Part shown: positions 2,456 through 56,627 of the stretch, piece by piece | Position numbering within the stretch: position 1 is the first letter of the stretch | How the letters are laid out: each line of letters begins with the position of its first letter | From: Dehalococcoidia bacterium | GTDB lineage: Bacteria > Chloroflexota > Dehalococcoidia > Lucifugimonadales > G963668185 | Direction of reading: 5' to 3' | NCBI GenBank assembly: GCA_965116985.1 | Contig: OZ220745.1 | Span: 2,691,092-2,755,091, forward strand | DNA length: 64,000 nucleotides | The notes under the pieces: model-generated | Databases searched by the model: none | The model's input: only the letters and a program-made list of their open reading frames with translations | What the model was told of the DNA's origin: nothing | Made by a program: the position numbers and the translations under genes

Positions 2456-2526
2456 CGCGAACGGTGGGGAAGGGCTGTGTCGGACTTTTGAGAGGCAGAA
2501 CTGGTTGTCCACTCTGGGAGGCTGGC

Positions 2527-3927
2527 ATGACTGACGAGAAACTCGCATTGATGGGTCACCTGATGCGTCGGGCCGGGTTTGGGGCCACTCGGACGGAGCT
2601 TGAAGGACTCACTTCAAAGGCCTACGAAGACGTAGTAGAAGAGCTCCTGCATCCCGAGCGATTCCCCGACGTCGAAGAGGACGTACTCAAGCGCTACTAC
2701 GCGGCGCTCAACTCGTGGGAACCTCTCTTCACCTGGTGTGGCCGCTGGTTGTACCGCATGATCAACACCAGGCGCCCGCTCGAAGAGAAGATGGCGCTCT
2801 TCTGGCACCACGTGTTTGCCACCGGCTACAACAAGAGCGAGCATACTCCAACGCTCGTCACCCAGATAGACTCCTTCCGCCAGAACGGCATGAAGGACAT
2901 GAAGACGATCCTGATGGATCTGTCTCGCGATCCTGCCATGATCGACTGGCTCGACAACAATGAGAACCATCGAGATGCTCCCAACGAGAATTACGGCAGG
3001 GAGCTGCTCGAGTTGTTCTCAATGGGAGTCGGCAATTACACCGAGTACGACATCAAGAACGCCGCCCGAGCCTTCACCGGCTGGACGATGCGGCAGGTCA
3101 TCCCTCTGTACCCGCACGGCCACCACGTCCCTGAGTTCGTCTACGACGAAGAGGACCATGACGACAGCGAGAAGGAGTTCCTCGGGCGCAAGGGCAGGTT
3201 CAACGGCGAAGACATCATTGACATTATCTTGGAAGAGCCGGCAACGGCCCGGTTCATCTGCAGACATCTCTACAACTTCTTCGTAGCCGATGAACCGCAG
3301 GTCCCCGCTTGGGAGACCGTGCCTCCGCAGGACCCGGAGGCAATTGAGACCCTCATGAACTCCTTCACGGAGTCGGGCTACTCGATCAAGGCCGTCCTGC
3401 GGACGCTGTTCAACTCAGACTTCTTCAAGCAGGCCCGCTACAAGAAGGTGAAGAGTCCAACCGAGTTGGTAGTTGGAATCGTACGCCTGACGGGCGAGCA
3501 TCGCTTCCCCGAGCCCGGCCTGGTGGACCTGGACACCGCCACGATGGTGATGGGTCAGAGGTTGATGGACCCGCCTACCGTGGAAGGCTGGCATACGGGC
3601 AAGGAATGGATCGACGGCGGCACACTGAACGAACGCGTCAACTTCGCGGTCGACAGGGTGGGCGACGTCGAGAAGCCGGGAATCAGAGACATCGTGGACG
3701 CCCTGGGTTCGGGTGGCTCGCTTTCGCCCGAGGACGTAGTCGAGGGCTGCCTGGAGCAGCTCGGCGCAATCGACGTAGGGCAGGACACGCGCCAGGCTCT
3801 CATGCACAACGCCGCGGCTGGCGGCTCCCTGAGCTTTGACACCGAGGAAGAAAGACAGAAAAGCGTGGAACGCATCCAGAGGACGCTTCAGTTGATCGTG
3901 GCGTCCACCGAGTTTCAATTCGCGTAG
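2527..3927 (+). CDS. DUF1800 domain-containing protein
   Basis: HLMRRAGFGAT...FWHHVFAT...ENYGRELLELFSMGVGNYTE is typical of DUF1800. GGGAGG lies 6 nt before ATG 2527. Confidence 0.8.
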   Translation: MTDEKLALMGHLMRRAGFGATRTELEGLTSKAYEDVVEELLHPERFPDVEEDVLKRYYAALNSWEPLFTWCGRWLYRMINTRRPLEEKMALFWHHVFATGYNKSEHTPTLVTQIDSFRQNGMKDMKTILMDLSRDPAMIDWLDNNENHRDAPNENYGRELLELFSMGVGNYTEYDIKNAARAFTGWTMRQVIPLYPHGHHVPEFVYDEEDHDDSEKEFLGRKGRFNGEDIIDIILEEPATARFICRHLYNFFVADEPQVPAWETVPPQDPEAIETLMNSFTESGYSIKAVLRTLFNSDFFKQARYKKVKSPTELVVGIVRLTGEHRFPEPGLVDLDTATMVMGQRLMDPPTVEGWHTGKEWIDGGTLNERVNFAVDRVGDVEKPGIRDIVDALGSGGSLSPEDVVEGCLEQLGAIDVGQDTRQALMHNAAAGGSLSFDTEEERQKSVERIQRTLQLIVASTEFQFA

Positions 3928-3970
3928 GGTCTGAAGGATAGCCGCGGCAGGATTGCCCAGGAGGAGATCG

Positions 3971-5110
3971 ATGGCAAAGAACGGCAACGGCAAAGACCCC
4001 GTCCTCGTAGTCATTCAGCTTACGGGCGGGAACGACTTCATGAACACCGTCATCCCTTACACCAATCCTGTCTACTACGACGCGAGGGGAACGACGGCGA
4101 TTCCGGAGGGAGAGTCCCTCCCGATCGACGACACACTGGCGTTCCACCCGTCGGCGGCGCCCTTGAAGGACCTGTACGAGGCGGGCGACGTCGCCGTCAT
4201 CCAGGGCATCGGCTACCCGAACTCCAGCAGATCGCACTTCCGCGCCATGGACATCTGGCACACCTGCGAGCCCAACGAAGTCGGCACTCAGGGCTGGCTC
4301 GGCCGGGCGACTGAGATTCTCGACCCTAATCAGGAGAACGTACTGACCACCGTGAACTTCGGCCGTGGCATGCCGAGGGCGCTGGCCAGCCCCGGAATCC
4401 CGATCACATCCGTCGGAGACCTCGACACCTACGGACTGATGTCCGGCATTTCCGATGTCGAGCAGCGGACCGAAGCGCTGGACATCTTCAAGCAGATGTA
4501 CGGCCCTGCAATCGGGTCCGGCCCGGTGGCCGACTACCTTGCCCGCACCGGCTTGGACGTCATCAAGGGCGCCGACGAGATTAAGGTCGCTCCAGACCTG
4601 TACGAGTCGACCGTCGAGTACGCAACCAACCCGATCGCTAAGAGCCTACGCGACGTGGCGCGAGTGCACCTGGCGGGCCTGGGCACTCGGATCTTCTACA
4701 CGCAGCACGGCGGCTACGACGTACACGCCAACGAGAACCCGACCCAGCCCAGGCTGCTCTCCGAGTTGACTGGCGCCATCTCCGACTTCATGCAGGACCT
4801 TAGGGAACACGACGCGGCTGACGAAATCGCGATCCTCGTGTTCACCGAGTTCGGCAGGCGTATGAGGGACAACGGTAGCGGTACCGACCACGGCTCCGGC
4901 GGCGGGGCGTTCATCATCGGCGAGAAAGTGGAGGGCGGCTTGTACGCCGAGTACCCGTCCCTCGAGCCGAGCGAATGGCTGAACGGCGAAGACCTGAAGC
5001 ACACCATCGACTTCCGCGGCATTTACGGCACCATGCTCCAGCAGTGGATGGACATCACGCCGAACGAGATCGTTGGCGGAGACTTCGAGCAGATCAACCC
5101 GTTCAGGTAA
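3971..5110 (+). CDS. DUF1501 (sulfatase-like fold) domain-containing protein
   Basis: LVVIQLTGGNDFMNTVIPY...RSHFRAMDIWHT...TEFGRRMRDNGSGTDHG. GGAGGA precedes ATG 3971. This is the usual DUF1800-DUF1501 gene pair. Confidence 0.8.
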   Translation: MAKNGNGKDPVLVVIQLTGGNDFMNTVIPYTNPVYYDARGTTAIPEGESLPIDDTLAFHPSAAPLKDLYEAGDVAVIQGIGYPNSSRSHFRAMDIWHTCEPNEVGTQGWLGRATEILDPNQENVLTTVNFGRGMPRALASPGIPITSVGDLDTYGLMSGISDVEQRTEALDIFKQMYGPAIGSGPVADYLARTGLDVIKGADEIKVAPDLYESTVEYATNPIAKSLRDVARVHLAGLGTRIFYTQHGGYDVHANENPTQPRLLSELTGAISDFMQDLREHDAADEIAILVFTEFGRRMRDNGSGTDHGSGGGAFIIGEKVEGGLYAEYPSLEPSEWLNGEDLKHTIDFRGIYGTMLQQWMDITPNEIVGGDFEQINPFR

Positions 5111-7282: not shown

Positions 7283-7294
7283 GCCCCTGGCCTA
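7280..7294. terminator. short palindrome joining the convergent stop codons of prs and the S9 peptidase gene
   Basis: TAGGCC-cct-GGCCTA. The TAG of prs and the CTA (TAG on the minus strand) of the peptidase form the stem ends. There is no U-tract. Confidence 0.3.
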
Positions 7295-9295
7295 CGCCTT
7301 CAGGTACTTCTCGAACCACCGCAGGATGTGATTGAGTCGGCTGATCCTTCGGTCGGTGCGTCCTCCTCGAGAGAGACCGTGCGACTCCTCCGGAAAGCGG
7401 ACCAGTTCGGTATCCACGCCCAGTCGCTTTAGTGCCGTGAAGAGCTGCTCGCCCTGAGAAATCGGACACCTCAAGTCGTTCTCGCTGTGAATGATCAGAG
7501 TGGGAGTTCGAGCGTTTCCTATGTAGCGCAGCGGTGACTGCCTCCAGTAGCTCTCGAAGTCTTCCCACGGAGGTTTACCGCTGAAGACGTGCTCCCACGT
7601 CCAGCCCGTGTCGCTGGTGCCGTAGAAGTCCACCAGGTTCACAACGGAGCGTTGCGTGACCGCCGCCTTGAAGCGGTCCGTGTGTCCAATGATCCAATTG
7701 GTCATGAAGCCGCCGTAGCTGCCTCCGGTAACGCCCATTCGGTGTTCGTCGATGTAGGGCAGGTCCTGCACGTAGTCGGCCCAGGCCATCAGGTCTTCAT
7801 AGTCGGGCCCGCCCCAACGCTCTCGTATTGCGCTTGCGTGGGATTCACCGTAGCCGCGGCCTCCCCGGGGGTTGCAGAAATAGACAACGTAGTCGTGGGC
7901 GGCGAGGTACTGGAACTCATGCATGAAGACGTTGCCGTACTGCGCCCAGGGGCCGCCGTGGATCTGCATGATGGACGAGTATTTTCTTGTCGAGTCGAAG
8001 CCCGGCGGTTTGAGTATCCAGCCCTGTAGATCGACCCCTGCCGGGCCCGGAAACCACACCTCATCCACTTCGCCGAAATAGAGTCTGCTCAGTAGTTCAT
8101 CGTTGTGAGAGCTGACACGTCGCTGCGTGCGGATGTCCAGACTAAGCGAGTGGACCTCGCCCGGGCTGCGCTCAGAGACATCCACCCATGCAGCCGTCGA
8201 TCGGCTTTGGTCGAAGTCGAACTCGCCGGCGATGGCGTCGCGGTCGATGACAGCTTCCAGCTCGCAGTCCAGCGTCACGGAGCAGAGCTGCGTCCGTCCC
8301 TTGCTTGTGACCTGAAAGTAGACTCGCTCGGAGTCCGGCGTCCACACTGGTCTGGTGCTTGGTCCGTCTCCGCGTTCGCTGATGGTGTCGTTTCCAATCG
8401 ACACGTCGAACGCGGCCGTCAGACTTCGGGCGGGCTCTGAGCCGTCCATGGAAGCGAGCCAGAGTTCGGCATTCTTCCACGGGCTGTCGGCGCTCTCCGT
8501 GCCAACGTACGCCACCCACCCTCCGCTCGGTGAGACGCTTGGAAGAGCCTTCGGACCGCCGGGGGCTTCAATGCGCTGAATGTCACCGCCGGAAGCAGGT
8601 ACCGAGAACAGCTCCATCTCGTCGGGCCTGAGGTCCGCCTCGTCGCAGCGGTTGGACACAAAGACGACTCGTTCTCCGTCGGGCGTCCAGCAGGGGCTGT
8701 GCTCGTCGTAGTCGTCTCCGCTCGTGAGTTGGCAGAGGGATCCGGTGCTTACTTCTGCGGTCCACAAGTGTTGTCTGCTGTTGGGCCAGAAGCCGACGCC
8801 ATCCAGACGGTAGTACACTCGCTTGATCCACCGCTCCACCGGGACACTTGCGTTCTCCTCCTCGGAAGCGCCCTCTTCGGTCTCATCCGAGTCCTCCAGG
8901 CGAAGCTCGAAGACGATGCGTTCGCCGTTGGGTGACCAGTCGAAGCTGCCAATCTGTCCCTTCAATCTGGTCAGTTTCCTCGCTTCCCCGCCGTCGAACG
9001 GAATCAGGTACAGCTGCCTGATTCGTCCGTCTTCCCTGTCCGACAGGAACGCCAGCTGCGAACCGTCAGGGGAGAACTTCGCCCCGCTATCGGTCCAATC
9101 GCCCGCGGTGAAAGGGTGGCTGCTCTCACCATCGGTGCTGGCAAGCCAGATGTCCGAGTAGGTCTTCTTGCTGTTCTCGCAAACTCTCCGCACCGTGTAT
9201 GCGACGTGTCTGCCGTCCGGAGACACGTCGCATCCAGCGACGTTACGGAGACCGTAGAGGTCTTCCCCGCTGGTCCGTCTCAGTTCGTTGTTCAT
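7292..9295 (-). CDS. S9 family serine peptidase (prolyl oligopeptidase / acylaminoacyl-peptidase-like)
   Basis: N-terminal beta-propeller (WSPDG/FSPDG repeats). C-terminal GGSYGGFMTNW nucleophile elbow, then ...SENDLRCP... and ...EESHGL. Start moved to ATG 9295 (MNNELRR), preceded by GGAG. Confidence 0.85.
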   Translation of the reverse strand: MNNELRRTSGEDLYGLRNVAGCDVSPDGRHVAYTVRRVCENSKKTYSDIWLASTDGESSHPFTAGDWTDSGAKFSPDGSQLAFLSDREDGRIRQLYLIPFDGGEARKLTRLKGQIGSFDWSPNGERIVFELRLEDSDETEEGASEEENASVPVERWIKRVYYRLDGVGFWPNSRQHLWTAEVSTGSLCQLTSGDDYDEHSPCWTPDGERVVFVSNRCDEADLRPDEMELFSVPASGGDIQRIEAPGGPKALPSVSPSGGWVAYVGTESADSPWKNAELWLASMDGSEPARSLTAAFDVSIGNDTISERGDGPSTRPVWTPDSERVYFQVTSKGRTQLCSVTLDCELEAVIDRDAIAGEFDFDQSRSTAAWVDVSERSPGEVHSLSLDIRTQRRVSSHNDELLSRLYFGEVDEVWFPGPAGVDLQGWILKPPGFDSTRKYSSIMQIHGGPWAQYGNVFMHEFQYLAAHDYVVYFCNPRGGRGYGESHASAIRERWGGPDYEDLMAWADYVQDLPYIDEHRMGVTGGSYGGFMTNWIIGHTDRFKAAVTQRSVVNLVDFYGTSDTGWTWEHVFSGKPPWEDFESYWRQSPLRYIGNARTPTLIIHSENDLRCPISQGEQLFTALKRLGVDTELVRFPEESHGLSRGGRTDRRISRLNHILRWFEKYLKA

Positions 9296-9394
9296 AAGGG
9301 ACTCCGCTGATTGTTCAACGTACGGCATTATAGAGAGTCGTCCCTGCGCCAACGTGTGGCCGAAGGCGGCTCCGGGCTGCACCTCAATTGGCAT

Positions 9395-9403
9395 TGATAT
9401 AAT
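9395..9403 (+). promoter_or_regulatory. candidate extended -10 promoter element for secA
   Basis: TGaTATAAT at 9395-9403, about 60 nt upstream of ATG 9465. The -35 is weak. A TATAAT also lies on the minus strand at 9327-9332, facing the peptidase gene. Confidence 0.4.
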
Positions 9404-9464
9404 CTGGGGGCAGGCTTTGGCTGATGGAAGATCGGCCAGGGAACGGAGAGTCACTTACAGAACC

Positions 9465-12093: not shown

Positions 12094-13854
12094 GTGAACA
12101 ACACTCAGATCGCCGGCGTCTTCGAGGACATTGCCTTTCTTCTGGAGATGGCAGGGGAGAAGGTGTTCCAGATCCGCGCGTACCAGCGCGCCGCCAGAAC
12201 GATCAGCCACCTGCCGACTGAACTGGACCAGATGCTGCGGGAAGAGCAGGACCTCACTGAGATACCCGGCATTGGGAAGGCGATATCGGACAAGATAGGC
12301 GAGCTGATCGACACCGGTGAGCTGGCGTACCTCCAGAACCTCAAGACCAGATTCCCAGACCTCAGCCTTGACCTGCTCAAGGTGCCCGGGCTTGGCCCGA
12401 AGACCGTGGCCAGGCTCTACGGGGAGCTTGGCATATCGGACTTGGACGGGCTCAGGGAAGGTATCGAGAGCGGTGCGGTTGCGGCGCTGCCCCGGATGGG
12501 GAAGAAGAGCACAGACAACATTCTCCGGCAGATCGAGGCCGCGCGGACAAAGGACCAGAGGACGCCGGTTGGACGGGCGATGCGTGCGGCGGACCGTCTG
12601 ATCAGCGCGCTCCGGGAAGAATGCCCGAGCCTGACCAGGATCGAGGCGGCCGGAAGCCTCAGGCGATTCGAGGAGACCATCGGCGACATAGACCTGGTGT
12701 GCACGGCAGGCGACCACGCCGAAGTTCTTGCGGCTCTTGTCGGCCAGCCCAATGTGCGTGAAGTGCTTGGGCACGGGGGAACGAAGGCGTCGGTCGTGCT
12801 CAGCGAGGGCATCCAGGTGGACCTGCGCGTCGTGAAGGAAGGCCACTACGGTGCGCTGCTCCAGTACTTCACCGGCAGTCTGCAGCACAACGTCGAACTC
12901 AGAAGCAGGGCGCAGCGTATGGGCCTGTCGCTCAACGAGTACGGACTCACGAACACGGCCACCGGCGAGGTCGAGGAGTTCGCCGCCGAGGAGGAGCTGT
13001 ACGAGCGGCTGGAGATGGACACTCCTCCCCCGGAGCTGCGCCAGGGCATGTACGAGGTCCAGGCCGCTGCCGAAAGAGCCCTGCCTCGGCTGGTGACGGT
13101 GGAGGACGTGAAGGGAGACCTGCACGACCACACAGACTGGAGCGATGGGCGGGACCCGCTGGAGTTGATGCTGGCTGCAGCCGCCGGGCGCGGCCTGGAT
13201 TATGTGGCCATCACCGACCATTCCGTTGGCAGAGGCATCGCTAACGGCCTGAGCGTCGAACGGCTGAAGATGCAGGCCGCATCGTTGAAGGAGATCCGCG
13301 AACGCTTCAACGGCATGCGTGTCCTTCACGGTACGGAGATGGACATACGGGCGGACGGCAGCCTTGACTACGACGACGATGTGCTCGAGGAGTTGGACTG
13401 GGTCATAGGCTCGATTCATTCCGGCATGGGCCAGGACGCGGAGACGATGACGCGGCGGATCATCAAGGCCATGCACAACCCTCACGTGACGGTGATCGGC
13501 CACCTGAGCACGCGGCTTATCGGCCAGCGTCCTCCCATCGAGGCCGACTATGACGCGATTCTCAGAGCCGCGGCGGAGACCGGTACGGCAATGGAGATCA
13601 ACGCCTCCCCGGAGCGGCTGGACCTGAAGGACACGCTCGTGTACCGGGCAAGGGAGCTTGGCGTGCCTTTGGTCATCAGCACAGACGCCCACACAACCGA
13701 GGCGCTCGACAACACGCGTTTCGGCGTCGCGGTGGCGCGGCGGGGCTGGTGCGAGGCCCGGCACATACTGAACGCGCTGCCTCTCGAAGGCTTTCTCGAG
13801 TACTTGGCGACGGCGAAGCCGCAGCGGACGGAATGGTTTGCCCGCAATGCGTGA
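12094..13854 (+). CDS. polX: family X DNA polymerase with C-terminal PHP domain (PolX)
   Basis: NTQIAGVFEDIAFLLEMAGE..., HhH GIGKAISDKI, PHP LHDHTDWSDG...ITDHS...STDAH. Start proposed at in-frame GTG 12094, 8 nt after the secA stop. The track's upstream extension overlaps secA. Confidence 0.85.
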   Translation: MNNTQIAGVFEDIAFLLEMAGEKVFQIRAYQRAARTISHLPTELDQMLREEQDLTEIPGIGKAISDKIGELIDTGELAYLQNLKTRFPDLSLDLLKVPGLGPKTVARLYGELGISDLDGLREGIESGAVAALPRMGKKSTDNILRQIEAARTKDQRTPVGRAMRAADRLISALREECPSLTRIEAAGSLRRFEETIGDIDLVCTAGDHAEVLAALVGQPNVREVLGHGGTKASVVLSEGIQVDLRVVKEGHYGALLQYFTGSLQHNVELRSRAQRMGLSLNEYGLTNTATGEVEEFAAEEELYERLEMDTPPPELRQGMYEVQAAAERALPRLVTVEDVKGDLHDHTDWSDGRDPLELMLAAAAGRGLDYVAITDHSVGRGIANGLSVERLKMQAASLKEIRERFNGMRVLHGTEMDIRADGSLDYDDDVLEELDWVIGSIHSGMGQDAETMTRRIIKAMHNPHVTVIGHLSTRLIGQRPPIEADYDAILRAAAETGTAMEINASPERLDLKDTLVYRARELGVPLVISTDAHTTEALDNTRFGVAVARRGWCEARHILNALPLEGFLEYLATAKPQRTEWFARNA

Positions 13855-14548
13855 GACCGTTGCTGGTCCCTGTTCCTCCAGCGCCGAGGCCATCTCTCAG
13901 CTTCGTGCAGACGTGCGGGACGGCGTCCACTGGGCTGAGGCGGTCTTTCGGGCGATGGGGCAGTGGGCCAACGCGGAGGAAGAGGCAAATGGCCGGCATT
14001 TCAGGTACGTCATTGGAGGCGAGGCGTTCGACAGGACGCTCCTGGCCGAAAGGCTGCTCCAGGAGGTTGCAGGGGAGGTCCCTGAGGGCGAGATCGAGAA
14101 CTTCACAGTCCGGGGGGACCTGCCTGAAGGAATCGATGAGGACCGGATCCAGAGCTTGCTCGGCGTGGAGAAGTATCGGGGATACCTGAACTTCCACTAT
14201 GGCGTGACCGTGGAGGAGACGCTGCAGCTGGCGGTGGAGCAGGAGGTCATCAAGCGGTACGCGAGCAACGGCATCCGACGCATTGAAGACCCTGCCGAAG
14301 AGGCGTTCGCCAGAATCTACGGCGCCGGCCAGGCGGAACTGGCCGTGAGGTTCAGGCAAGAGGACGCAGGGGAGGGCGGCACGGCTGCGACACTCGACGA
14401 AGTGCCCATGACGATGTCGGAGTGCAAGGAGTTCACCTACTGGCTGTTCAAGCTCAGGCTCAGGCGATCTGACAAGCCAAAGATAGCCAGCGACACGAAA
14501 AAGGGCCTCGACCAGCTTCAGAGGATGCGCAAGGCAAGCCGCGCCTGA
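13847..14548 (+). CDS. hypothetical protein, translationally coupled to polX
   Basis: ATG 13847 overlaps the polX stop (ATGCGTGA). Codon usage looks coding. No family recognised. Confidence 0.6.
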   Translation: MRETVAGPCSSSAEAISQLRADVRDGVHWAEAVFRAMGQWANAEEEANGRHFRYVIGGEAFDRTLLAERLLQEVAGEVPEGEIENFTVRGDLPEGIDEDRIQSLLGVEKYRGYLNFHYGVTVEETLQLAVEQEVIKRYASNGIRRIEDPAEEAFARIYGAGQAELAVRFRQEDAGEGGTAATLDEVPMTMSECKEFTYWLFKLRLRRSDKPKIASDTKKGLDQLQRMRKASRA

Positions 14549-14565
14549 CCCCGTCCTGAGCCCGT

Positions 14566-15030
14566 CGAAGTGGCCCTACGCAAGCCAGCCCTCGCCCCAA
14601 GTCCGCCAAAGCGTAGCCCCCAACCCATTCGCCCTGACCCCGTCGAAGGGCCTTGCCCCGAACACCACCCGCCCCCCAAGTCCGCCAAAGCATAGCCCCC
14701 AATCCGTTCGCCCTGAGCCTGTCGAAGGGCCTTCCGCAAGCCAACTCTCGGCCCAAGTCCGCCAAAGAGCAGCCCCCAACCCATTCGCCCTGAGCCCGTC
14801 GAAGGGGCCTTCCACAAGCCAGCACTCGCCCCAAGTCCGCCAAAGTACCCTTACCCAATCCGTTCGCCCTGAGCCTGTCGAAGGGCCTTACGCAAGCCAC
14901 CTCTCGCCCCTAATCCGCCAAAGCGTAGCCCCCAATCCGTTCACCCTGAGCCTGTCGAAGGGCCTTACGCCGAGCAGCGTCCGCTAGAAGTCCGCCATCC
15001 CTCAGGCGTAGGGGCCGTTCGCGAACGACC
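14566..15030. repeat. tandem array of six composite A+D units, 76-79 bp period
   Basis: GTCGAAG landmark at 14566, 14642, 14721, 14798, 14877 and 14954 (spacings 76, 79, 77, 79, 77). The whole unit is repeated with point variation. There are no unique spacers. Confidence 0.85.
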
Positions 15031-15390
15031 CTCCCAGCAGTACCAACCCACGCCACAACCCCGTCATCCCGGCATTCACACGGCAGCGTGAACCCGGGGC
15101 CAGCCGGGATCCAGAGGGGCGGGGGCATTTCGCCTATCGAACCACTCGCCTCGATCACAGGAATCCGCACGGAACTGTCATTCTGAACGAAGCGAAGCGG
15201 AGTGAAGAATCTAAAGCCGTTGCCCGCAAAACAAGGTTGTTCCCAGACACCAACCCACACACCACAACCCCGCCATCCCCGCACTCCCGCGCCAGCGTGA
15301 ACCCGAGGGCCAGCCGGAATCCAGAGGGGCGGGGCACCCCACGCCCGCCAACACCCTCCGGCGATAGACCCTGCCACAAACCAGCACTCG

Positions 15391-15832
15391 CCCCAAGTCC
15401 GCCAAAGTGCCCTTACCCAATTCGTTCGCCCTGAGCCCGTCGAAGGGCCTTCCGGCGAGCAGCGTCCGCCAGAAGTCCGCCCGCCACCAACCCCCGCCCT
15501 CCAAAGACCACGCGTAGGGGCCGTTCGCGAACGGCCCGCCCAACCACGCGCCACACCGAAGCGTCGACAGGAACCCGTTCGCCCCAAGTCCGCCAAAGTG
15601 CCCTTACCCAACCCGTTCGCCCTGAGCCTGTCGAAGGGTCTTCCGGCGAGCAGCGTCCGCCAGAAGTCCGCCCGCCACCAACCCCCGCCCTCCAAAGACC
15701 ACGCGTAGGGGCCGTTCGCGAACGGCCCGCCCAACCACGCGCCACACCGAAGCATCGACAGGAACCCGTTCGCCCCGTTCGCCAAAGTGCCCTTACCCAA
15801 CCCGTTCGCCCTGAGCCTGTCGAAGGGCCTTA
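15391..15832. repeat. 191-bp higher-order tandem duplication (2 full units plus a partial third)
   Basis: CCCCAAGTCC landmark at 15391 and 15582, with CCCC at 15773. The palindrome module recurs at 15514 and 15705 (191 bp apart). Confidence 0.85.
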
Positions 15833-16053
15833 CGCAAGCCACCTCCCGCCCAAAGTCCGCCCCAGCCCCCACAACAGCCGCGCACGGCCCGTTCGCAAAC
15901 GGCCCACCCACCAACCCCCGCCACACCACAATCCCGCCATCCCCGCACTCCCGCGACAGCGTGAACCCGGGGGTAGCTGGAATCCAGCGGGGCGGGGCAC
16001 CCCACGCCCATCTACACCTGAGCCCTTCCCTCCAAATCCCACCAACCGCCCTC

Positions 16054-16083
16054 TTGACACACTAGTTCTCAGTGACTTAAACT
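16054..16083 (+). promoter_or_regulatory. candidate promoter giving a leaderless mRNA for CDS 16091-17074
   Basis: TTGACA 16054-16059, 18-nt spacer, TAAACT 16078-16083, then only 7 nt to ATG 16091 with no Shine-Dalgarno. The same geometry is conserved at the paralog (56049-56078, minus strand). Confidence 0.45.
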
Positions 16084-16090
16084 AGAACGC

Positions 16091-17074
16091 ATGTATAGCG
16101 AAACGCAGTCCATATCACCAATACAGAGCATCGTCCGAGAAGAGACAAAGGACGGCAGACTCATCGTGCGATTCCTCGTCGCCGCAATGCAGGACGAGAT
16201 TCGCGACGCCAAGCCTCATCACAGGCTCGACGCCGCACGCCAGCTGATCAAGCTCGGCTTCGACGAAGCGAAGGAGTTCGCCAGCATACCCGCGACATCA
16301 CTAAAGCGTGCAGGGCAGCCGAAGCCCGAGGCCGACACCATCGACACCTCCAACCTCAACCCAGACCTAGCGCTCTTCATACGCGCCGAGACCGACGGAG
16401 GCCGCCGGGCCGTACGCTTCCTCGTCGACGTCATGCTCGGATTCATGCCCGGGTTCGGACCGCACCATCGCATAGACGCAGCCAAGGAGCTGCTCCGCCG
16501 CGGCTTCGACGAAGCCCCCGACGACCTACCACTCTTTCCCCAGCCTGCCCTGATCTCGTCGAAGGAGTCTGTCCTGAGCCCGTCGAACGAGCCTGTCCTG
16601 AGCCTGTCGAAGGAACCTGTCGGACCGCAACAGGCGTCCTCTGACGACTCCCTCGCCGAAGCCGACATCCTCCTCGACTACGAACCCCCGTACGTCAACA
16701 CATACGGCCACAGCCGAGACGACGGTCTGAACACCCGAGCAGTCTTCAAAGCGTCGGACGCCCTGATGGACGCCGTCGGCAGGCTCCCGCCGCCCGAGAA
16801 ACCCGGAGCATTCAACCCCGACGAGACGAGCAGCATCATCGTGCACAACGGAACGGAGCACTACTTCAAGGAACACGCGCGCACAGCGGTAGAACTGTCC
16901 ATCGCCGCGGGCGAAGTCATGGACGCGATCAGGCGCATCCGTGATTCATGCCGGACACCCTCCGCCTTCCTCGCCCAAAATACCAAGAAGGACTCCGACC
17001 CCGGGGAAGAACCTGCCGATGACGACGAGAGCCTGTCCCGCCCCCCTCGAGGGAACGCCGACGCTCCCCCCTGA
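16091..17074 (+). CDS. hypothetical protein, paralog 1. Two tandem ~43-aa helical repeats, an internal module-derived 8-aa repeat and an unassigned C-terminal domain
   Basis: 327-aa ORF. Internal repeats DGRLIVRFLVAAM..KPHHRLDAARQLIKLGFDEA and GGRRAVRFLVDVM..GPHHRIDAAKELLRRGFDEA. About 92% nt identity to 55010-56041 over the first 120 nt (9 mismatches counted). Confidence 0.7.
   Translation: MYSETQSISPIQSIVREETKDGRLIVRFLVAAMQDEIRDAKPHHRLDAARQLIKLGFDEAKEFASIPATSLKRAGQPKPEADTIDTSNLNPDLALFIRAETDGGRRAVRFLVDVMLGFMPGFGPHHRIDAAKELLRRGFDEAPDDLPLFPQPALISSKESVLSPSNEPVLSLSKEPVGPQQASSDDSLAEADILLDYEPPYVNTYGHSRDDGLNTRAVFKASDALMDAVGRLPPPEKPGAFNPDETSSIIVHNGTEHYFKEHARTAVELSIAAGEVMDAIRRIRDSCRTPSAFLAQNTKKDSDPGEEPADDDESLSRPPRGNADAPP
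16554..16625 (+). repeat. in-frame 24-nt tandem repeat (3 units) derived from repeat module A, inside the CDS
   Basis: Units at 16554-16577, 16578-16601 and 16602-16625 encode SKESVLSP/SNEPVLSL/SKEPVGP. The paralog has 4 units. Confidence 0.85.
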
Positions 17075-17775
17075 TCCCCACGTCCCTGCCGCAGCGTGAC
17101 CTTCGAACACACGCCGCACATCGGCAAGAAAGCCAGCCCACCCCGCAAACCCGTCATTCCGGTATTCACGCGAAAGCGTGAACCAGGGGCAGCCGGAATC
17201 CAGCGGGGCGGGGCACGTCACGCCCGCCAACACCCTCCGGCAACAGAACCCCGCCGCCCTCCCTCAGGCGTAGGGGCCGTTCGCGAACGGCCCGTCCCAC
17301 CACGCGCCACACCAAAGCGTCGACAGGAACCTGTTCGCCCCCAAATCCGCCAGAGCGTAGCCCCCAATCCGTTCGCCCTGAGCCTGTCGAAGGGCCTGCC
17401 GCAAGCCAGCTCCCGCCCCAAGTCCGCCATCCCTCGGGCGTAGGGGCCGTTCGCGAACGGCCCGCCCAACCACGCGCCACACCAAAGCGTCGACAGGAAC
17501 CCATTCGCCCCCCAAATCCGCCAGAGCGTAGCCTCCAGTCCGTTCGCCCTGAGCCTGTCGAAGGGCCTTACGCAAGCCACCTCTCGCCCCAAGTCCGCCC
17601 CAGCGCCCACATCAGGCCGCGCGCATGGGCCTTTCGCGAACGACTCTCCCTCACCAACGCCCGCCCACCCCGCAACCCGTCAATCCCGTCATTCACGCGA
17701 AAGCGTGAACCGGGGGTTAGCCGGAATCCAGTGGGGCGGGGTCGTCCGCTACTCCCCCTGAGCCCGTCGAAGAAA
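17075..17775. repeat. 0.7-kb mosaic repeat array downstream of paralog 1, abutting the copA 3' end
   Basis: Module C at 17150-17213 and 17685-17741, containing the perfect hairpin TTCACGC-GAAA-GCGTGAA (17165-17182 and 17692-17709). Module B starts at 17270 and 17440. Module A at 17369-17396. Confidence 0.9.
17261..17600. repeat. 170-bp higher-order tandem duplication (2 units)
   Basis: CCCTCrGGCGTAGGGGCCGTTCGCGAACGGCCC landmark at 17261 and 17431. Confidence 0.8.
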
Positions 17776-17786
17776 TGAGGTTAGAG

Positions 17787-20075
17787 CTAAGACGCGGTGG
17801 GAAAGGTGCGCGGACGGAAGCGGCCCAGTCGGAGCGAGTTCGTGACTACCGACACGGAACTGAATGCCATCGCGCCCGCGGCGAGTATGGGATTCAGGAA
17901 ACCGTGATCGCCGAGAATGGGCGTGAGGGCTTCCGGTACGCCTGGACCGGCGAAGACGGGGTACAGGATGCCCGCGGCGATCGGAATCAGCGCGGCGTTG
18001 TAGGCGAATGCCCAGAACACGTTCTGCTTGATCGTGCGCATCGTTGCGCGGCTCAGGGACATCGCCGCGGAGACGTTGGACAGGTCCGCACCGACGAGGG
18101 TCACATCGGCCGCCTCCATGGCAACGTCGGTGCCGGCGCCGATAGCGATGCCGACATCGGCCTGGGTCAGGGCCGGCGCGTCGTTGATGCCGTCGCCGAC
18201 CATTCCCACCGTGCGGCCCTCCGACTGAAGGCCGCGGATCACGGCGACCTTGTCCTCCGGAAGGACTTCAGCAGCCACCTGCTCGATGCCAAGCTGGCCC
18301 GCAATGTGTTCCGCGGTTCGCCTGCCGTCGCCCGTGAGCATCACAACGTGCAGCCCTTGGCTTCGCAGAGCGGCGACTGCCTCGGCAGCGCCGGGCCGCA
18401 ACGTGTCGGCCACCGCGATCAGGCCGAGCGCGACCCCCTCGCAGGCCACAAAGAGCGGGGTCTTGCCGGCGGCGGCCAGGCCGTCGGCGTCCGCCGCGAG
18501 GCTCTCGACGGCGATGCCCTGCCCATCCATAAGGGCGCGGTTTCCGATCAGGACCGCTTCCCCGTCAACGGTGGTCCTTATGCCGTGGCCGGGGAGAGCT
18601 TCGAAGTCGGACGGCTCCGCCAGCGTCAAACCGCGCGAGCGGGCAGAGTCCAGCAGCGCGACGGCAATCGGATGCTCGGAGCGCTGTTCCGCGGAGGCCG
18701 CCAGCCGCAGCAGGCGGGACTCATCGACGCCGTCGGCGGGCACGATGTCGGTAACGGCTGGCTGGCCGATCGTAAGCGTTCCGGTTTTGTCCAGCACAAC
18801 GGTGTCCAGGTTGTGAGCGCGCTCAAGCGCCTCGGCGCTCCGCACCAGAATGCCGAGCCCGGCTCCCTTGCCGGTGCCGACCATGATCGCGGTAGGCGTC
18901 GCCAGGCCCATTGCGCACGGACAGGCGATGATGAGCACCGCGACGGCTGCCAGCATGGCATTGGCGTACGACGGGTCTGGACCGAAGGCCAGCCACAAGA
19001 GGAACACGACCGCAGCGATGCCAATCACGGTGGGCACGAAGTACGAAGAAACGGTGTCGGCCAGCCTCTGGACCGGGGCCTTGGAGCCCTGCGCCTCTTC
19101 GACAAGGCGCACTATCTGCGCGAGCACGGCGTCCTGTCCAACGCTCGTCGCCCGGTACGTGAAGGCGCCCGTGCTGTTCAGGGTCGCGCCGTAGACCGGA
19201 GAGCCCTCCGACTTGTCGACGGGCATGCTCTCGCCGGTCAGCATGGACTCGTCGACGGCGGAGGAGCCTTCGATGACTGTGCCGTCAACCGGCAGCCTCT
19301 CGCCGGGGCGGATGACCAGTACGTCGCCGGTCTCGACGTGGTCGACAGGCAAGTCGGCCTCGCGGCCGTCCCGGAGGACTCTTGCGGTATCAGGCCTCAG
19401 CCTCATGAGTCGCCTGATCGCGTTGGCGGCGCGGCCCTTGGCGCGGCCTTCGAGGAACTGTCCTACGAGGACCAGGCCGATGATGGCGGTCGAAGTGTCG
19501 AAGTATGTCGCCGAGCCATGAATGGAGAACACAGAGAGATCGTGGAGAAATGTGACGACCGCGCTGTACGCGAAGGCGGTGGTCGTTCCAACGGCAATCA
19601 GCGTGTGCATGTTCGACGTGCCATGCCTGAGCGCGGCCCATGCGGACCTGTAGAAGCCGGCGCCCGCCCAGAACTGGACCGGGGCGGCCAGGACCAGGAA
19701 GAGGTAGTCCGCGCGGAAGGGCATGTCCGGACTCAGGGCCATCAGAATCATGATGACCGCGGCTGAACCAAGGCTGAGGGCCATTTTCAGCTTTAGCTCG
19801 GTCGAACTGTCGTCATCGGAACTGAGGCCCGCCGCCGCCTCGTCCAGGGCATGGGGATCATATCCGGCGCTCTCGATGGCGTCATGGAAGTCGGAGACGC
19901 GCGCGGCTCCCGGCAGGTACTCGACTGTCGCCTTCTCCGTGGCAAGGTTGACAGCCGCGGAGACAACGCCGTCGACGCCGGAGAGGGCCTTCTCGACGTG
20001 GCCGACGCATGCGCCGCAGGTCATTCCGCGAACTCCAATTGTCACGCGTCCGGTGGGTTCGGCGGCTATGGCCAT
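17787..20075 (-). CDS. copA: copper-translocating P1B-type ATPase
   Basis: N-terminal [21 protein letters not shown] transmembrane motif ([13 protein letters not shown]), [17 protein letters not shown]. Confidence 0.93.
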
Positions 20076-35372: not shown

Positions 35373-35470
35373 GATAGAGGCGCGCAGGGCCTACGTCAAC
35401 GAATCTCGCCCTCAGATAGAGGCGCGCAGGGCCTACGTCAACGAATCTCGCCCTCAGATAGGGGCGAGAT
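35373..35470. repeat. perfect 42-bp tandem direct repeat (2 units plus a partial third)
   Basis: GATAGAGGCGCGCAGGGCCTACGTCAACGAATCTCGCCCTCA at 35373-35414 and 35415-35456. A third unit starts at 35457 and diverges. Confidence 0.9.
35446..35469 (-). terminator. candidate terminator hairpin after the M20 peptidase gene
   Basis: TCTCGCCC / GGGCGAGA 8-bp stem with an 8-nt loop. On the minus strand it is followed by TTCGTT, a weak U-tract. Confidence 0.35.
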
Positions 35471-36849: not shown

Positions 36850-37066
36850 TGGTGCCTCCGTGTTGGCGTCCGCGTGAGGCCGGCGCGGTCGACACTGTAG
36901 CAAAGCAAGAGCGCGAGTTGCCAGACGAGCCGGCGCAGGTCTGAATTCCCGGGCTCCGCCGCCGGAGAAAAATGAAAGAGGTGTGACATTCCGGGACTCT
37001 TGGGACATTTCGTAGCTGGAGCGCTGCCGTGCGCGTCACCGTATTGACCCGAAAGTACTACTGGAA

Positions 37067-40161: not shown

Positions 40162-40209
40162 GCGGGCCGGTGTGGAGGGCGAGGTACGTTCTTGGAAGGG
40201 AACGGGAGC

Positions 40210-40233
40210 GGGCCGTTCGCGAACGGTCCCTAC
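40210..40233. repeat. solo palindromic module B between convergent genes
   Basis: GGGCCGTTCGCGAACGGtCCCTAC. Confidence 0.8.
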
Positions 40234-45590: not shown

Positions 45591-45678
45591 GGGGTGGCAA
45601 GCGAGAGGCCTCTGTCTGCGTGACGCCATCGGACAGGTAGGGCTGAACGGCACTTGGGGCGAATGGCGGTCTGAGAGA

Positions 45679-45698
45679 GGCCCTTCGACAGGCTCAGG
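45679..45698. repeat. solo module A core (reverse orientation)
   Basis: GGCCCTTCGACAGGCTCAGG. Confidence 0.75.
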
Positions 45699-46938: not shown

Positions 46939-47161
46939 CGTTCGTTTCTCCTTCTGTGGCTTGGCAGTCTCTTGGTTGAATTGCGGCTACGGTCGACTTG
47001 GCGCTTTGCGCCGGATCCCCTCATTCCTTCGACAAGCTCAGGACAGGCTCTAACCTTATCCCACAAGGGTGGAAGGAACCGGAATTGCTCCTTTGACTAA
47101 CCTCATTGCAGTCAAGTTCAAAGTGACGTAGGGCACACGCTGTTGCTTTCGGATTGACTTG

Positions 47162-54551: not shown

Positions 54552-54698
54552 AACATCGTTTAGGTCGAACGGAACATCAATGCCCCGAGACTCCTAACGG
54601 CGGCAGCCGTTCAAATATTGGGCGGATGGATTCAAGCTGTTGAGCGCGGCTGCTTACCCCTGTAAGCATCGAGGCAGGGGATTGAGAGCCTGCCCTGA

Positions 54699-54909
54699 TC
54701 CCGTCCTGAGCCTGACGAAGGGGCCCGTGCCCCAACCCGTTCGCCCTGAGCCCGTCGAAGGGCCTTCCGCCGAGCAGCGTCCGCTAGAAGTCCGCCCGCC
54801 ACCAATCCCCGCCCTCCAATGACCACGCGTAGGGGCCGTTCGCGAACGGCCCGCCCCGGGACGCCACGCCGGCGAAGTAGAAGCGACCCACACCGCAACC
54901 CCGTCAACG
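54699..54909. repeat. mosaic repeat array (modules A and B) on the 3' side of paralog 2
   Basis: Module A at 54737-54764, module B at 54829-54852. Collinear with the A-linker-B composite seen at 15420-15540. Confidence 0.85.
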
Positions 54910-54928
54910 AATTAGATGACACTTACAA
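54905..54928. repeat. left arm of the inverted repeat bracketing the paralog-2 block
   Basis: CAACGAATTAGATGACACTTACAA. Positions 54910-54928 are the perfect reverse complement of 56628-56646, and the match is 23/24 when extended. It sits in the loop of the hairpin AACCCCGTCA...TGACGGGGTT. Confidence 0.85.
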
Positions 54929-55009: not shown

Positions 55010-56041
55010 TCAAGGGGGAGCGTCGGCGTTCCCTGGAGGAACTCCTTCGACAAGCCCAGGACGGGGTTGGGACGGGCTCCCGTCGTCATCGGCAGGTTCT
55101 TCCCCGGGGTCCGAGTCCTTTTTGGTATTTTGGGCGAGGAAGGCGGAGGGTGTCCGGCATGAGTCACGGATGCGCCTGATCGCGTCCATGACTTCGCCTG
55201 CTGCGATGGACAGTTCTACCGCTGTGCGGGCGTGTTCCTTGAAGTAGTGCTCCGTTCCGTTGTGCACGATGATGCTGCTCGTCTCGTCGGGGTTGAATGC
55301 TCCGGGCTTCTCGGGCGGCGGTAGCCTGCCTACGGCGTCCATCAGGGCGTCCGACGCCTTGAAGACTGCCCGGGTGTTCAGACCGTCGTCCCGGCTGTGG
55401 CCGTATGTGTTGACGTACGGGGGCTCGTAGTCGAGGAGCACGTCGGCTTCGGTGGGGGAGTCGTCGGAGGACGTCTGTTGCGGTCCGACAGGTTCCTTCG
55501 ACAGGCTCAGGACAGGCTCGTTCGACGGGCTCAGGACAGGCTCGTTCGACGGGCTCAGGACAGGCTCGTTCGACGGGATCTGAGAAGGCTGGGGAAAGAG
55601 TGGCAGGTCGGCGGGGGCTTCATCGAAGCCGCGGCGGAGCAGTTCCTTGGCGGCGTCTATGCGATGGTGCGGCCCGAACCCGGGCATGAATCCGAGCATG
55701 ACGTCGACGAGGAAGCGTACGGCCCGTCGGCCTCCGTCGGTCTCGGCGCGTATGAAGAGCGCGAGGTCGGGGTTGAGGTTGGCGGTGTCGATGGTGTCGG
55801 CCTCGGGCTTCGGGTGCTCTGCGCGCTTTAGTGATGTCGCGGGTATGCTGGCGAACTCTTTCGCTTCGTCGAAGCCGAGCTTGATTAGCTGGCGTGCGGC
55901 GTCGAGCCTGTGATGAGGCTTGGCATCGCGTATCTCGTCCTGCATTGCGGCGACGAGGAATCGCACGATGAGTCTGCCGTCCCTGGTCTCTTCGCGGACG
56001 ATGCTCTGTATTGGTGATAAGGCCTGCGTTTCGCTGGACAT
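55010..56041 (-). CDS. hypothetical protein, paralog 2 of 16091-17074
   Basis: 343 aa with the same domain order. It differs by one extra 24-nt unit in the internal repeat and by a 24-nt module-like net insertion near the C-terminus (55043-66). Confidence 0.7.
   Translation of the reverse strand: MSSETQALSPIQSIVREETRDGRLIVRFLVAAMQDEIRDAKPHHRLDAARQLIKLGFDEAKEFASIPATSLKRAEHPKPEADTIDTANLNPDLALFIRAETDGGRRAVRFLVDVMLGFMPGFGPHHRIDAAKELLRRGFDEAPADLPLFPQPSQIPSNEPVLSPSNEPVLSPSNEPVLSLSKEPVGPQQTSSDDSPTEADVLLDYEPPYVNTYGHSRDDGLNTRAVFKASDALMDAVGRLPPPEKPGAFNPDETSSIIVHNGTEHYFKEHARTAVELSIAAGEVMDAIRRIRDSCRTPSAFLAQNTKKDSDPGEEPADDDGSPSQPRPGLVEGVPPGNADAPP
55483..55578 (-). repeat. in-frame 24-nt tandem repeat (4 units) inside paralog 2
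   Basis: Units at 55483-55506, 55507-55530, 55531-55554 and 55555-55578. Encodes SNEPVLSP x3 plus SNEPVLSLSKEPV. Confidence 0.85.
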
Positions 56042-56048
56042 GGGTTCT

Positions 56049-56078
56049 AGCTTAAGGCATTGAGAACTAGTGTGTCAA
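56049..56078 (-). promoter_or_regulatory. candidate leaderless-mRNA promoter of paralog 2
   Basis: Minus strand: TTGACA (56078-56073), 18-nt spacer, TAAGCT (56054-56049), then 7 nt to ATG 56041. Confidence 0.45.
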
Positions 56079-56627
56079 GACGGTGTTTGGACGGACTTGT
56101 GGAGGGAAGGGTCCACGTCTTGATGGGCGTGGGGATCCCCGGCCCGCTGGATTCCGGCTAGCCCCTGGTTCACGCTGGCGCGGGAGTGCGGGGATGGCGG
56201 GGTTGTGGTGTGTGGGCTGGTACTGCTGGGAGGGTCGTTCGCGAATTGGTCATGTGCGCGGCTGTTGTGGCTGCGGGGGCGGACTTGGGGCGGGAGCTGG
56301 CTTGCGTAAGGCCCTTCGACAGGCTCAGGGCGAACGGGTTCCTGTCGACGTTTTGGTGCGGCGCGTGGTTGGGCGGGCCGTTCGCGAACGGCCCCTACGC
56401 CTGAGGGATGGCGGCGGGGTTCTGTCGCCGGAAGGTGTTGGCGGGCGTGGGGTGCCCCGCCCCTCTGGATTCCGGCTGGCGCCGGGTTCACGCTGACGCG
56501 GTTTTGGTGTATGGGTTGGTTCAACTTCGCCGGCGTGGCGCGTGGTTGGGCGGGCCGTTCGCGAACGGCCCCTACTCCTGAGGGATGGCGAACGGGTCAT
56601 GCGCGGCAGGGGTGGCGATCGGCGGAA
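56079..56627. repeat. mosaic repeat array on the 5' side of paralog 2 (modules C, B, D and A in reverse orientation)
   Basis: Module A (reverse complement) at 56310-56337. Module B (reverse complement) at 56375-56398 and 56552-56575, 177 bp apart. Module C (reverse complement) at about 56130-56190 and 56445-56500. The order is collinear with 15790-16053. Confidence 0.9.

Follow-up and report, generated by a model that had tools for sequence, protein, structure and literature searches.

Why does a single protein-coding gene lie in the midst of about 2.25 kb of repeat-filled non-coding DNA, and are the gene and the repeats connected? The question is raised by the coding sequence (CDS) at positions 16091-17074 of a 64,000-nucleotide stretch from a Dehalococcoidia bacterium (GenBank contig OZ220745.1, forward-strand positions 2,691,092 to 2,755,091), referred to below as the window and numbered from its first letter. 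The explanation that we favour, at a probability of roughly one half, is that mosaic arrays resembling the intergenic mosaic elements of Neisseria (NIMEs) and bacterial interspersed mosaic elements (BIMEs) are coupled by recombination to a variable multigene family. What is new is the multicopy gene family, which was previously undescribed; the arrays themselves are of known kinds, namely repetitive extragenic palindromic (REP) elements, BIMEs and NIMEs.

A gene enclosed by mosaic arrays of co-oriented repeats

The non-coding DNA around CDS 16091-17074 amounts to 1542 + 712 = 2254 bp, and arrays span the whole gap from the stop codon of the open reading frame (ORF) at 13838-14548 to that of a Cu-ATPase gene at 17787 (17787-20075, - strand). 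When the window was compared with itself, sequence recurring elsewhere in the window made up 91% of 14549-16053 and 92% of 17075-17786, versus ~0% of the remaining ~59 kb. The first-pass annotation had described a gene set among mosaic repeat modules, and this was confirmed. Tandem Repeats Finder detected four arrays in the stretch: 77 bp x 5.3, 191 bp x 2.3 (96% identity), 171 bp x 2.0 and, within the gene, 24 bp x 3.3. The higher-order units noted previously as 191 and 170 bp were recovered, and the 77-bp unit is present in 5.3 copies rather than the six first counted.

Module counts far exceeded those in dinucleotide-preserving shuffles. M1 (CCTGAGCCYGTCGAAG) matched at 25 places in the window versus 0.13 expected, the M2 core (GGGCCGTTCGCGAACGGCCC) at 11 versus 0.00, the 3' half of M3 (AGCCGGAATCCAGNGGGGCGGGG) at 7 versus 0.01, and M4 (CCCCAAGTCCGCCAAAG) at 14 versus 0.28. 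Only two of the module types at the locus are palindromic: M3, a nested hairpin (z = -4.4, computed on the sister copy at 17133-17216), and M2, which consists of GTAG followed by a perfect 20-nt palindrome. M1, M4 and M6 folded no better than shuffled sequences, so that the proposed clusters of palindromic repeats hold for M2 and M3 and not for the other three. Every module at this locus runs in the same direction as the gene, with no inverted pairs. Successive M3 copies lie at intervals of 209, 664, 1217 and 527 bp, and modules of several other types intervene. The array components are as follows.

14549..14970 (+): upstream array part 1, beginning 1 nt past the stop codon of ORF 13838-14548; 77-bp higher-order unit x 5.3 (Tandem Repeats Finder, 14555-14970), each unit being M1 (CCTGAGCCYGTCGAAGGGC) + M4 + spacer
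15008..15031 (+): M2 copy, a GTAG-tagged REP with GTAG + 20-nt palindrome GGGCCGTTCGCGAACGRCCC
15514-15537, 15705-15728, 17270-17293, 17440-17463: further M2 copies; degenerate at 15886-15905 and 17627-17646
15043..15124 (+): M3 copy 1, dRS3-like nested hairpin (CCCGTCATYCCGG ... TTCACRCG-loop-CGTGAA ... CCGGRATCCAG.GGGGCGGGG)
15177..15211 (+): M5, GTCATTCTGAACGAAGCGAAGCGGAGTGAAGAATC, a weak-stem relative of the GTCAT...ATC hairpin class; single occurrence here
15252..15334 (+): M3 copy 2; its 5' arm is degenerate
15388..15831 (+): upstream array part 2; 191-bp higher-order unit x 2.3, 96% identity, M4 + M1 + spacer + M2 + M6
15916..15997 (+): M3 copy 3, ending 94 nt before the ATG
17133..17214 (+): M3 copy 4, the first downstream module; the conserved GTCATT of its 5' arm starts 79 nt past the stop codon
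17254..17599 (+): downstream array; 171-bp higher-order unit x 2.0, M2 + M6 + M4 variant + M1
17660..17772 (+): M3 copy 5 (17660-17741) and a terminal M1 (17753-17772)

The downstream array stops at the stop codon of the Cu-ATPase gene. M5 folded no better than shuffles; a similar module is present at L014, one of the related loci described below. Long spurious ORFs (up to 339 aa; e.g. 14910-15929, -) cross the arrays on both strands and yield module peptides such as FDRLRANG and LRQAQGER, and public records probably list them as hypothetical proteins.

The gene encodes a conserved protein of an orphan family

The reality of the CDS, as first annotated, was supported by 791 homologues, by dN/dS below 0.05 against the paralogue in the folded parts of the protein, and by a confident structural model of its N-terminal domain. 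The gene and its parts are listed here.

16054..16083 (+): promoter TTGACA-18 nt-TAAACT, the ATG lying 7 nt after the -10 hexamer
16091..17074 (+): CDS, 327 aa, member of an orphan multicopy family
16115-16285: helical repeat 1, aa 9-65
16358-16513: helical repeat 2, aa 90-141
16514-16732: disordered acidic linker, aa 142-214
16542..16621 (+): in-frame M1-derived 24-bp unit x 3.3, encoding (V/P)LSPSNEP / VLSLSKEP
16733-16960: small C-domain, aa 215-290; the tail beyond it is disordered

The promoter is the sole promoter-like site in 14400-17900, and the arrangement CCCCTTGACA-N17/18-TAnnnT-AGAAC-N2-ATG is common to all copies of the gene in all genomes examined (70+ loci). Because the ATG lies only 7 nt past the -10 hexamer, we infer that the mRNA of this copy is leaderless.

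In the AlphaFold model, residues 10-64 and 91-139 form two three-helix repeats with predicted local distance difference test (pLDDT) scores above 90, in agreement with the tandem helical repeats recognised at first pass. The N-domain modelled separately gave a pLDDT of 84.7 and a predicted TM-score (pTM) of 0.77. The C-domain, which is specific to the lineage, was modelled as a helix, a beta-hairpin and a long helix at pLDDT 60-78. Invariant Arg and His positions occur in the two-repeat region of the family alignment. No match at E <= 1 was obtained for the protein in Pfam, NCBIfam, PHROG or PADLOC, and the long family members likewise lack a known domain. In agreement with the first-pass annotation, profile and structure searches detected no HUH/Y1 motif; they also detected no catalytic motif, nuclease or transposase fold, or helix-turn-helix (HTH). 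A single match to a PDB sequence profile, that of ribosome recycling factor, was judged to be due to chance. Foldseek searches, run against PDB with the full and N-domain models and against BFVD with the full model, returned no E value below 0.07 and only TM-scores under 0.3; no well-characterised family was matched by structure or by profile. The fold is confidently predicted, has a novel-looking N-domain and is without a known relative in PDB or BFVD. DNA or nucleic-acid binding on the basis of charge was rejected, as the whole protein is acidic (pI 4.9) and the N-domain near neutral (pI 6.4).

Between the two copies of the gene in the window (the second is described below), dS is 0.15-0.2 and dN is 0-0.008 in the folded domains, and the linker has an omega of ~0.8. 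By these substitution rates, the folded domains are under strong purifying selection and the linker evolves almost neutrally. The selection pattern in the folded domains therefore marks a functional protein gene rather than a repeat artefact. A different pattern was observed among the 21 paralogues of another Dehalococcoidia record, OY764162.1 (L001-L021): the second N-terminal repeat has a dN of 0 and the C-domain has dN close to dS (0.068 vs 0.064), unlike the two window copies, in which C-domain dN is 0. Selection on the C-domain may thus be relaxed or diversifying in one of the lineages.

The occurrence of module sequence inside the ORF itself, also noted at first pass, was verified: the 24-bp repeat is in frame and the linker is built from modules. 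The number of M1-derived 24-bp units varies, with 3 in this copy, 4 in the second window copy and 1-2 in other paralogues. In an alignment of the family, the linkers and tails, which vary, visibly consist of translated modules, e.g. VLSLSKGP, PLPQSAGEGRDGV, VRADRVLSPSKGPVEAP, IRHSGIPATAGTGEEAGIQRGG and SFRRRPEPRGG, and in some paralogues several different module types form most of the linker. These in-frame insertions are confined to regions predicted to be disordered.

The protein search returned the 791 relatives as unnamed proteins, none with a Pfam domain, and an exhaustive profile search yielded 605 family clusters at 50% identity. The source genome (3,218,282-bp contig) holds at least 15 clusters at 90% identity, corresponding to ~25 paralogues, and a second contig of 2,779,407 bp holds ~25 family clusters at the same identity. 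A scan of one genome per species (185,579 species genomes) gave 80 confirmed loci, all in metagenome-assembled genomes of Dehalococcoidia/Chloroflexota, including 21 in OY764162.1, 18 in the genome designated CAXXRM and 9 in CBDCYU. Several of these assemblies may derive from sponge microbiomes, to judge by their names. Copies are 80-93% identical to each other.

A phage-borne origin found no support, with no relative on IMG/VR viral contigs, no PHROG match and no BFVD fold match. Nor does the family behave as an insertion sequence or transposon: it has no transposase domain, a bracketing inverted repeat at the second copy only, 80-93% identity between copies, and paralogue homology that in several genomes begins only ~45 nt before the ATG, at the promoter. 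The window ORFs that were scanned encode no transposase, REP-associated tyrosine transposase (RAYT), IS110-type or recombinase domain. Rfam at gathering thresholds and ARAGORN detected no RNA genes in the window.

A second gene and array at 55 kb

The locus is not unique, as a second copy of gene and array occupies 54.7-56.65 kb of the window.

55010..56041 (-): paralogue, 343 aa, DNA 93-94% identical to copy 1, protein 100% identical to database protein P0001 from the 3,218,282-bp contig; the 24-bp unit occurs four times within the gene (55487-55577), and a further M1-type insertion lies close to the C-terminus (55045-55060)
56049..56627 (-): paralogue promoter TTGACA-18-TAAGCT (56049-56078) and upstream array of co-oriented M3, M1, M2 and M6
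54905..54928 (-), partner 56628-56651 (+): 24-nt AT-rich inverted repeat TTGTAAGTGTCATCTAATTCGTTG (TTGTAAGTGTCATCTAATTYGTTG) bracketing paralogue and array, ~1.7 kb
54694..54860 (+): modules M1 x 2 and M2, immediately beyond the bracket and oriented opposite to the paralogue

The two copies are colinear between 15514-17158 and 56575-54928, an interval that takes in promoter and gene together with ~580 bp of the upstream array and ~85 bp of downstream DNA. Colinearity stops inside the 5' arm of the downstream M3 hairpin (...cccgtcatt, 17158). The upstream array is ~1.5 kb long at copy 1 and 0.55 kb at copy 2.

The inverted repeat at copy 2 is absent at copy 1 and in the 80 related loci, and bracketing inverted repeats are not a family feature among the related loci examined. 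A metagenome scan for it returned only chance matches in low-GC coding DNA. It could reflect an inversion, or an insertion into a palindrome.

Recombination among the paralogues

When the 21 paralogues of OY764162.1 were compared, the four-gamete test failed for 52% of the informative pairs of sites. A home-made statistic modelled on the pairwise homoplasy index (PHI) was 0.401 versus 0.517 +/- 0.010 in permuted data (p <= 0.002), neighbouring sites thus being more compatible, and in a likewise home-made GENECONV-like test the longest shared tract exceeded all 200 permutations in 54 of the 210 pairs.

Comparison between genomes pointed the same way. The family genes L070 (CAXXRM) and L062 (CAXXNJ) are followed by the same downstream genes, which are ~65% identical in DNA. 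L070 and L062 themselves are 88% and 97% identical to paralogues of their own genome and 68% identical to each other, and dS is 0.15-0.2 within a genome versus 0.7-0.8 between genomes. As judged from these alignments, the pattern is that of paralogues which recombine heavily and evolve in concert by gene conversion.

Neighbouring genes showed little shared context. None of the 21 OY764162.1 loci has the neighbours of the window copies, and the partial synteny seen in other genomes is too rearranged to define insertion boundaries; no pair of empty and filled sites was found. At L006, L070 and L062, in three other genomes, the family gene adjoins homologues of the DUF1800/DUF1501 operon (2464-5110 in the window), of the gene for homocysteine S-methyltransferase (1341-2312) or of that for the S9 peptidase (7292-9454). 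The corresponding window position, 2312-2464, is a 150-bp spacer with no family gene; it is possibly an ancestral family site that is now empty.

Arrays are enriched at family genes

The association of gene and array proved to be real, recurring at both window copies, in OY764162.1 and in CAXXRM. Both arrays of the window lie at family genes and both family genes have arrays, so that arrays (at least three modules) occur at 2/2 family copies versus 0/~50 other intergenic regions. Elsewhere in the window only single modules were found, at ~31.2, 40.2, 45.7 and 47.0 kb (M1/M2 at 40208-40233, 45678-45698 and 47024-47050). In OY764162.1, module density was 2.9 per kb near the gene (up to 600 bp upstream or 400 bp downstream) versus 0.44 per kb in the far flanks, with at least one module near 19 of the 21 copies and at least three near 12. 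This compares with 7 arrays in other intergenic regions of that record's ~180 kb of far flanks, whose number (~190) is a back-of-envelope estimate and not a count. In CAXXRM, the third genome, family genes are preceded by 100-350-bp arrays of co-oriented GTCATTCTCGCCGCAGCGGGAATCCAG hairpin modules and others.

The link is not exclusive. Independent arrays with no family gene near them are held by 7 of the 21 OY764162.1 loci, and arrays are unusually long in the window lineage. Could the repeats then be passive, selfish or neutral sequences that pile up in tolerant flanks and disordered linkers, with recombination among paralogues proceeding independently of them? The existence of arrays without the gene and of the gene without arrays is in keeping with this, as are in-frame insertions restricted to predicted disordered regions and singletons in ordinary 3' intergenic positions. 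We nevertheless regard passive accumulation as quite unlikely, given the large enrichment per intergenic region in both the window and OY764162.1 (again with the estimated denominator) and the fixed positions of certain modules: a GTAG REP lies 11 nt past the stop codon in 7 of the 21 OY764162.1 copies, and a hairpin lies at about -95.

Two of the singletons were placed more precisely. A single M1 lies just 3' of gcvT (45832-46938, -) at 45683-45698 and another just 3' of a formate-tetrahydrofolate (THF) ligase gene (47162-48943, -) at 47027-47042, each in the orientation of the preceding gene. This placement fits a transcript-level role at the 3' end or transcription-coupled insertion. Two other repeats lie elsewhere in the window. 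A perfect 42-bp tandem repeat (x 2.2, 35373-35466), unrelated to the modules, lies between genes for a major facilitator superfamily (MFS) transporter (34002-35333) and an M20 peptidase (35491-37008), and a 30-bp repeat (x 3.8, 57496-57610) within an NYN-domain gene (56859-57956, +) encodes a Pro/Ala/Arg-rich low-complexity stretch.

Orientation and position of the hairpins raise a further possibility. In OY764162.1, 24 dRS3-like hairpins fall within -500..0 and 17 just past the stop codon, with 79 in '+' and 5 in '-' orientation. A dRS3-like module recurs at the distance of M3 copy 3 (-89 to -101) in the window paralogue and several OY764162.1 copies. The promoter-gene unit might thus be a mobile cassette that has one dRS3-like hairpin at about -95 and another, in the same orientation, soon after the stop codon, and that is excised or inserted by recombination at these hairpins. 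Either RecA or a site-specific recombinase (of Piv/IS110 or another type) with its gene elsewhere could mediate the exchange, in the manner in which integron cassettes or array-flanked genes are imagined to move, and repeated insertion into existing modules would surround every copy with co-oriented arrays. The near-constant upstream hairpin, its downstream counterpart, the almost wholly direct orientation and the end of window-copy homology within the 5' arm of the downstream hairpin all agree with this proposal. So do the absence of the window copies' neighbours from all 21 OY764162.1 loci, the presence of a copy beside the DUF1800/DUF1501 operon in other genomes and not in the window, and the role of dRS3 in Neisseria as the integration target of a phage recombinase (PMC1797815). 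It is opposed by the lack of an empty-site/filled-site pair and of a recombinase among the window ORFs scanned, by CBDCYU copies without any hairpin modules, and by paralogue homology that begins at the promoter in several genomes. In addition, the copies are 80-93% identical where an active element would be expected to be near-identical, and L070 and L062 look like old positional orthologues. On balance a mobile cassette seems rather unlikely. The fuller version, a new kind of chromosomal gene cassette copied or moved at pan-bacterial hairpin modules that the two-repeat helical domain might help to recognise, strikes us as distinctly improbable. A hairpin-bounded cassette, if true, would provide the first mechanistic handle on the persistence of near-identical 30-nt modules across phyla.

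Base composition was also considered in relation to orientation. DNA 1.5-5 kb from family genes is C-rich on the sense strand of the gene at 58 of 75 loci (binomial p ~1e-5 for the non-OY764162.1 set); copy 2 follows this trend (window 49000-62000), copy 1 is an exception, and locus orientations in OY764162.1 are patchy. The GC-skew bias of the flanks, which might tie module orientation to the replication strand, is weak.

The modules occur in unrelated bacteria

In a RAYT-type system, the repeats would be restricted to genomes that carry the cognate protein. We found the modules in Sphingobium, Comamonas, Moraxella, Neisseria, Azospirillum and Photobacterium. M1 (CCGTTCGCCCTGAGCCTGTCGAAGGGCCTTC), of ~30 nt, is identical at 31/31 nt to intergenic repeats of Sphingobium megaplasmids, which occur at 8-20 places per record; the comparison used window 15422-15452, other M1 copies and L081 1500-1531. 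M1 was found in Comamonas, Moraxella and Novosphingobium as well.

Simple M3-type hairpins from related family loci matched at least 40 places in the N. gonorrhoeae chromosome (88% over 34 nt), with further matches in Azospirillum and Photobacterium. The Neisseria copy reads tcccgtcattcccgcgcagacgggaatccagaccccc and is the dRS3 element (ATTCCC-N8-GGGAAT), the boundary repeat of NIMEs (PMC1797815). M3 shares CCCGTCATTCC...GGAATCCAG with the Neisseria dRS3 copies. The window M3 is ATTCCGG-N31-CCGGAAT with outer flanks CCCGTC...CCAG as in dRS3, the exact dRS3 form being present in related loci: L072 and L077 carry ATTCCC-N8-GGGAAT with CCCGTC...CCAC flanks ~75 nt upstream of the family gene, and L082 carries it at 401-434. 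Plasmid matches were obtained only for these simpler variants, and none for the window's own M3. In the hairpin modules the unpaired flanks are conserved and the stems are variable.

M2, with its GTAG head and G+C-rich palindrome, is a REP of the GTAG super-family, whose occurrence in Chloroflexi as well as other phyla was described by Di Nocera et al. (PMC3733652). M1 and M3-type modules are present in Alpha-, Beta- and Gammaproteobacteria, and the gene family is confirmed only in Dehalococcoidia/Chloroflexota. Because the M1, M3-type and M2 classes occur in other bacteria, the modules are private neither to the family nor to the phylum. A literature search for the module sequences returned no relevant report. 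The cross-phylum conservation of such short non-coding modules (the M1 30-mer, the dRS3-like hairpin) is striking.

The earlier hypothesis was that the protein is a dedicated factor that binds or mobilises the modules, a non-HUH analogue of a RAYT. In its favour are the co-localisation of gene and modules in three genomes, the conserved two-repeat domain with invariant Arg/His positions, and conserved unpaired flanks with variable stems, the type of target used by a structure-specific binding protein. Other results run the other way. Modules are abundant in Proteobacteria whereas all 80 family loci are in Dehalococcoidia/Chloroflexota, nine CBDCYU copies lack modules, arrays occur without the gene, and there are ~25 copies per genome. 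Moreover, the acidic protein, with its near-neutral N-domain, has no match to a catalytic motif, a nuclease or transposase fold, or an HTH. We therefore consider a dedicated factor very unlikely. The outcomes that the first-pass annotation had named as damaging to its idea were largely encountered, in the 9 CBDCYU copies without flanking repeats and in arrays without a family gene in 7/21 flanks.

Comparison with known repeat systems

In REP/BIME systems, the comparison usually drawn for a gene flanked by palindromic repeats, the RAYT (TnpA-REP) is a Y1 HUH transposase (PMC2817692, PMC3733652, PMC3479197). The likeness here consists of the GTAG-tagged, G+C-rich palindrome of M2 and of a gene flanked on both sides by repeats. 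REP clusters reiterated in tandem together with flanking DNA are known, as are in-frame intragenic REPs (PMC3733652), and REPs lie mostly downstream of genes. The RAYT-like layout suggested at first pass did not survive scrutiny: there is no HUH/Y1 domain, the gene has ~25 copies rather than one or a few, the flanking modules are direct and not inverted, and most modules are non-palindromic. Of the features that define a RAYT system, the GTAG palindrome alone has a counterpart here. E. coli-type BIMEs differ as well, with alternating REPs and defined linker motifs in place of the single orientation seen here.

NIMEs offer a closer parallel. In these, 20-bp dRS3 inverted repeats (ATTCCC-N8-GGGAAT) separate RS units of 50-150 bp, and a 2007 meningococcal comparison reported that NIME arrays were not seen outside Neisseria (PMC1797815). 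Like NIMEs, the arrays described here are long mosaics that differ in number and length between copies and lie beside varying, recombining genes; the adjacency to variable genes is evident in recombination and concerted evolution, in the linker omega of ~0.8 and in array lengths of ~1.5 vs 0.55 kb. They differ in that the window M3 has a nested 31-nt insert, there are no regular RS units each flanked by dRS3, GTAG REPs and non-palindromic modules are mixed in, and every module points the same way as the gene. The gene beside the arrays is an orphan in many copies that looks cytoplasmic and is no surface antigen, and the phylum is another.

Two further systems share single features. As with the Rickettsia palindromic elements (RPEs) and intragenic REPs (PMC3733652), a module lies in frame within a functional ORF, as 8-aa units in an insertion-tolerant region whose number varies among paralogues; here, however, one gene family is hit repeatedly, several module types occur in the linker and the 24-bp unit is tandemly expanded. 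As with integron cassettes, single genes are bounded by co-oriented hairpin repeats at many copies and sites per genome. Each unit here has its own promoter, there is no integrase or attI, the genes are dispersed rather than arrayed, and their mobility is only a candidate property.

A proposed recombination model for arrays and genes

We propose that copy 1 is one of ~25 small expression units, each having a consensus promoter of its own, an ATG that is probably leaderless and a protein of 300-350 aa, that are embedded in mosaic arrays of short co-oriented modules belonging to widespread bacterial intergenic repeats; non-palindromic spacer modules would make up the rest of the arrays besides M1, M2 and M3. 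Arrays would grow locally through tandem duplication of multi-module blocks, giving rise to the 77-, 191- and 171-bp higher-order units. Array and gene would be coupled through recombination, without a dedicated enzyme: paralogues would swap segments and be homogenised within each genome, and the repeat-rich flanks would be likely substrates as well as by-products of this exchange. Modules would be captured in frame in the disordered linker and tail, where expansion and contraction would produce variation in protein length.

The logic is that of Neisseria, except that the exchange is among paralogues and not with imported DNA. In the proposal of Bentley et al. (PMC1797815), recombination at variable genes is promoted by the NIME arrays beside them and, being error-prone, then enlarges those arrays. 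The data themselves show the repeats, the paralogues and how many there are, the pattern of selection, a signal of recombination, the enriched and co-oriented modules, their foreign occurrences and the in-frame variation in copy number. Taken together with the parallel from Neisseria, these findings make a recombinational coupling of arrays and genes likely.

Several points weigh against this reading. That the arrays would promote recombination is an argument by analogy with Neisseria. The PHI and GENECONV-like tests were home-made, and recent lineage-specific bursts of duplication could also account for the similarity of copies within a genome. In CBDCYU, 9 copies that remain fairly similar have no flanking repeats at all, so the family can be maintained in the absence of arrays. 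The arrays lack the regular dRS3-RS-dRS3 structure of NIMEs, and a NIME/BIME model does not predict full co-orientation. At distances of 2-5 kb the modules still point in the same direction as the gene, and the dRS3-like element is fixed at about -95 and shortly past the stop codon. Strict co-orientation and fixed hairpin positions hint at a more specific, site-directed process.

Significance

The analysis replaces an analogy with RAYT-type systems by one that can be tested, in which the arrays are partners of a recombining, length-variable multigene family. NIME-type arrays have been described as specific to Neisseria, and the Dehalococcoidia case suggests that array-associated gene variation may be a general mechanism. 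The family itself, with 605 clusters, no annotation and a disordered region built from modules, provides a clean case of repeats recruited into coding sequence.

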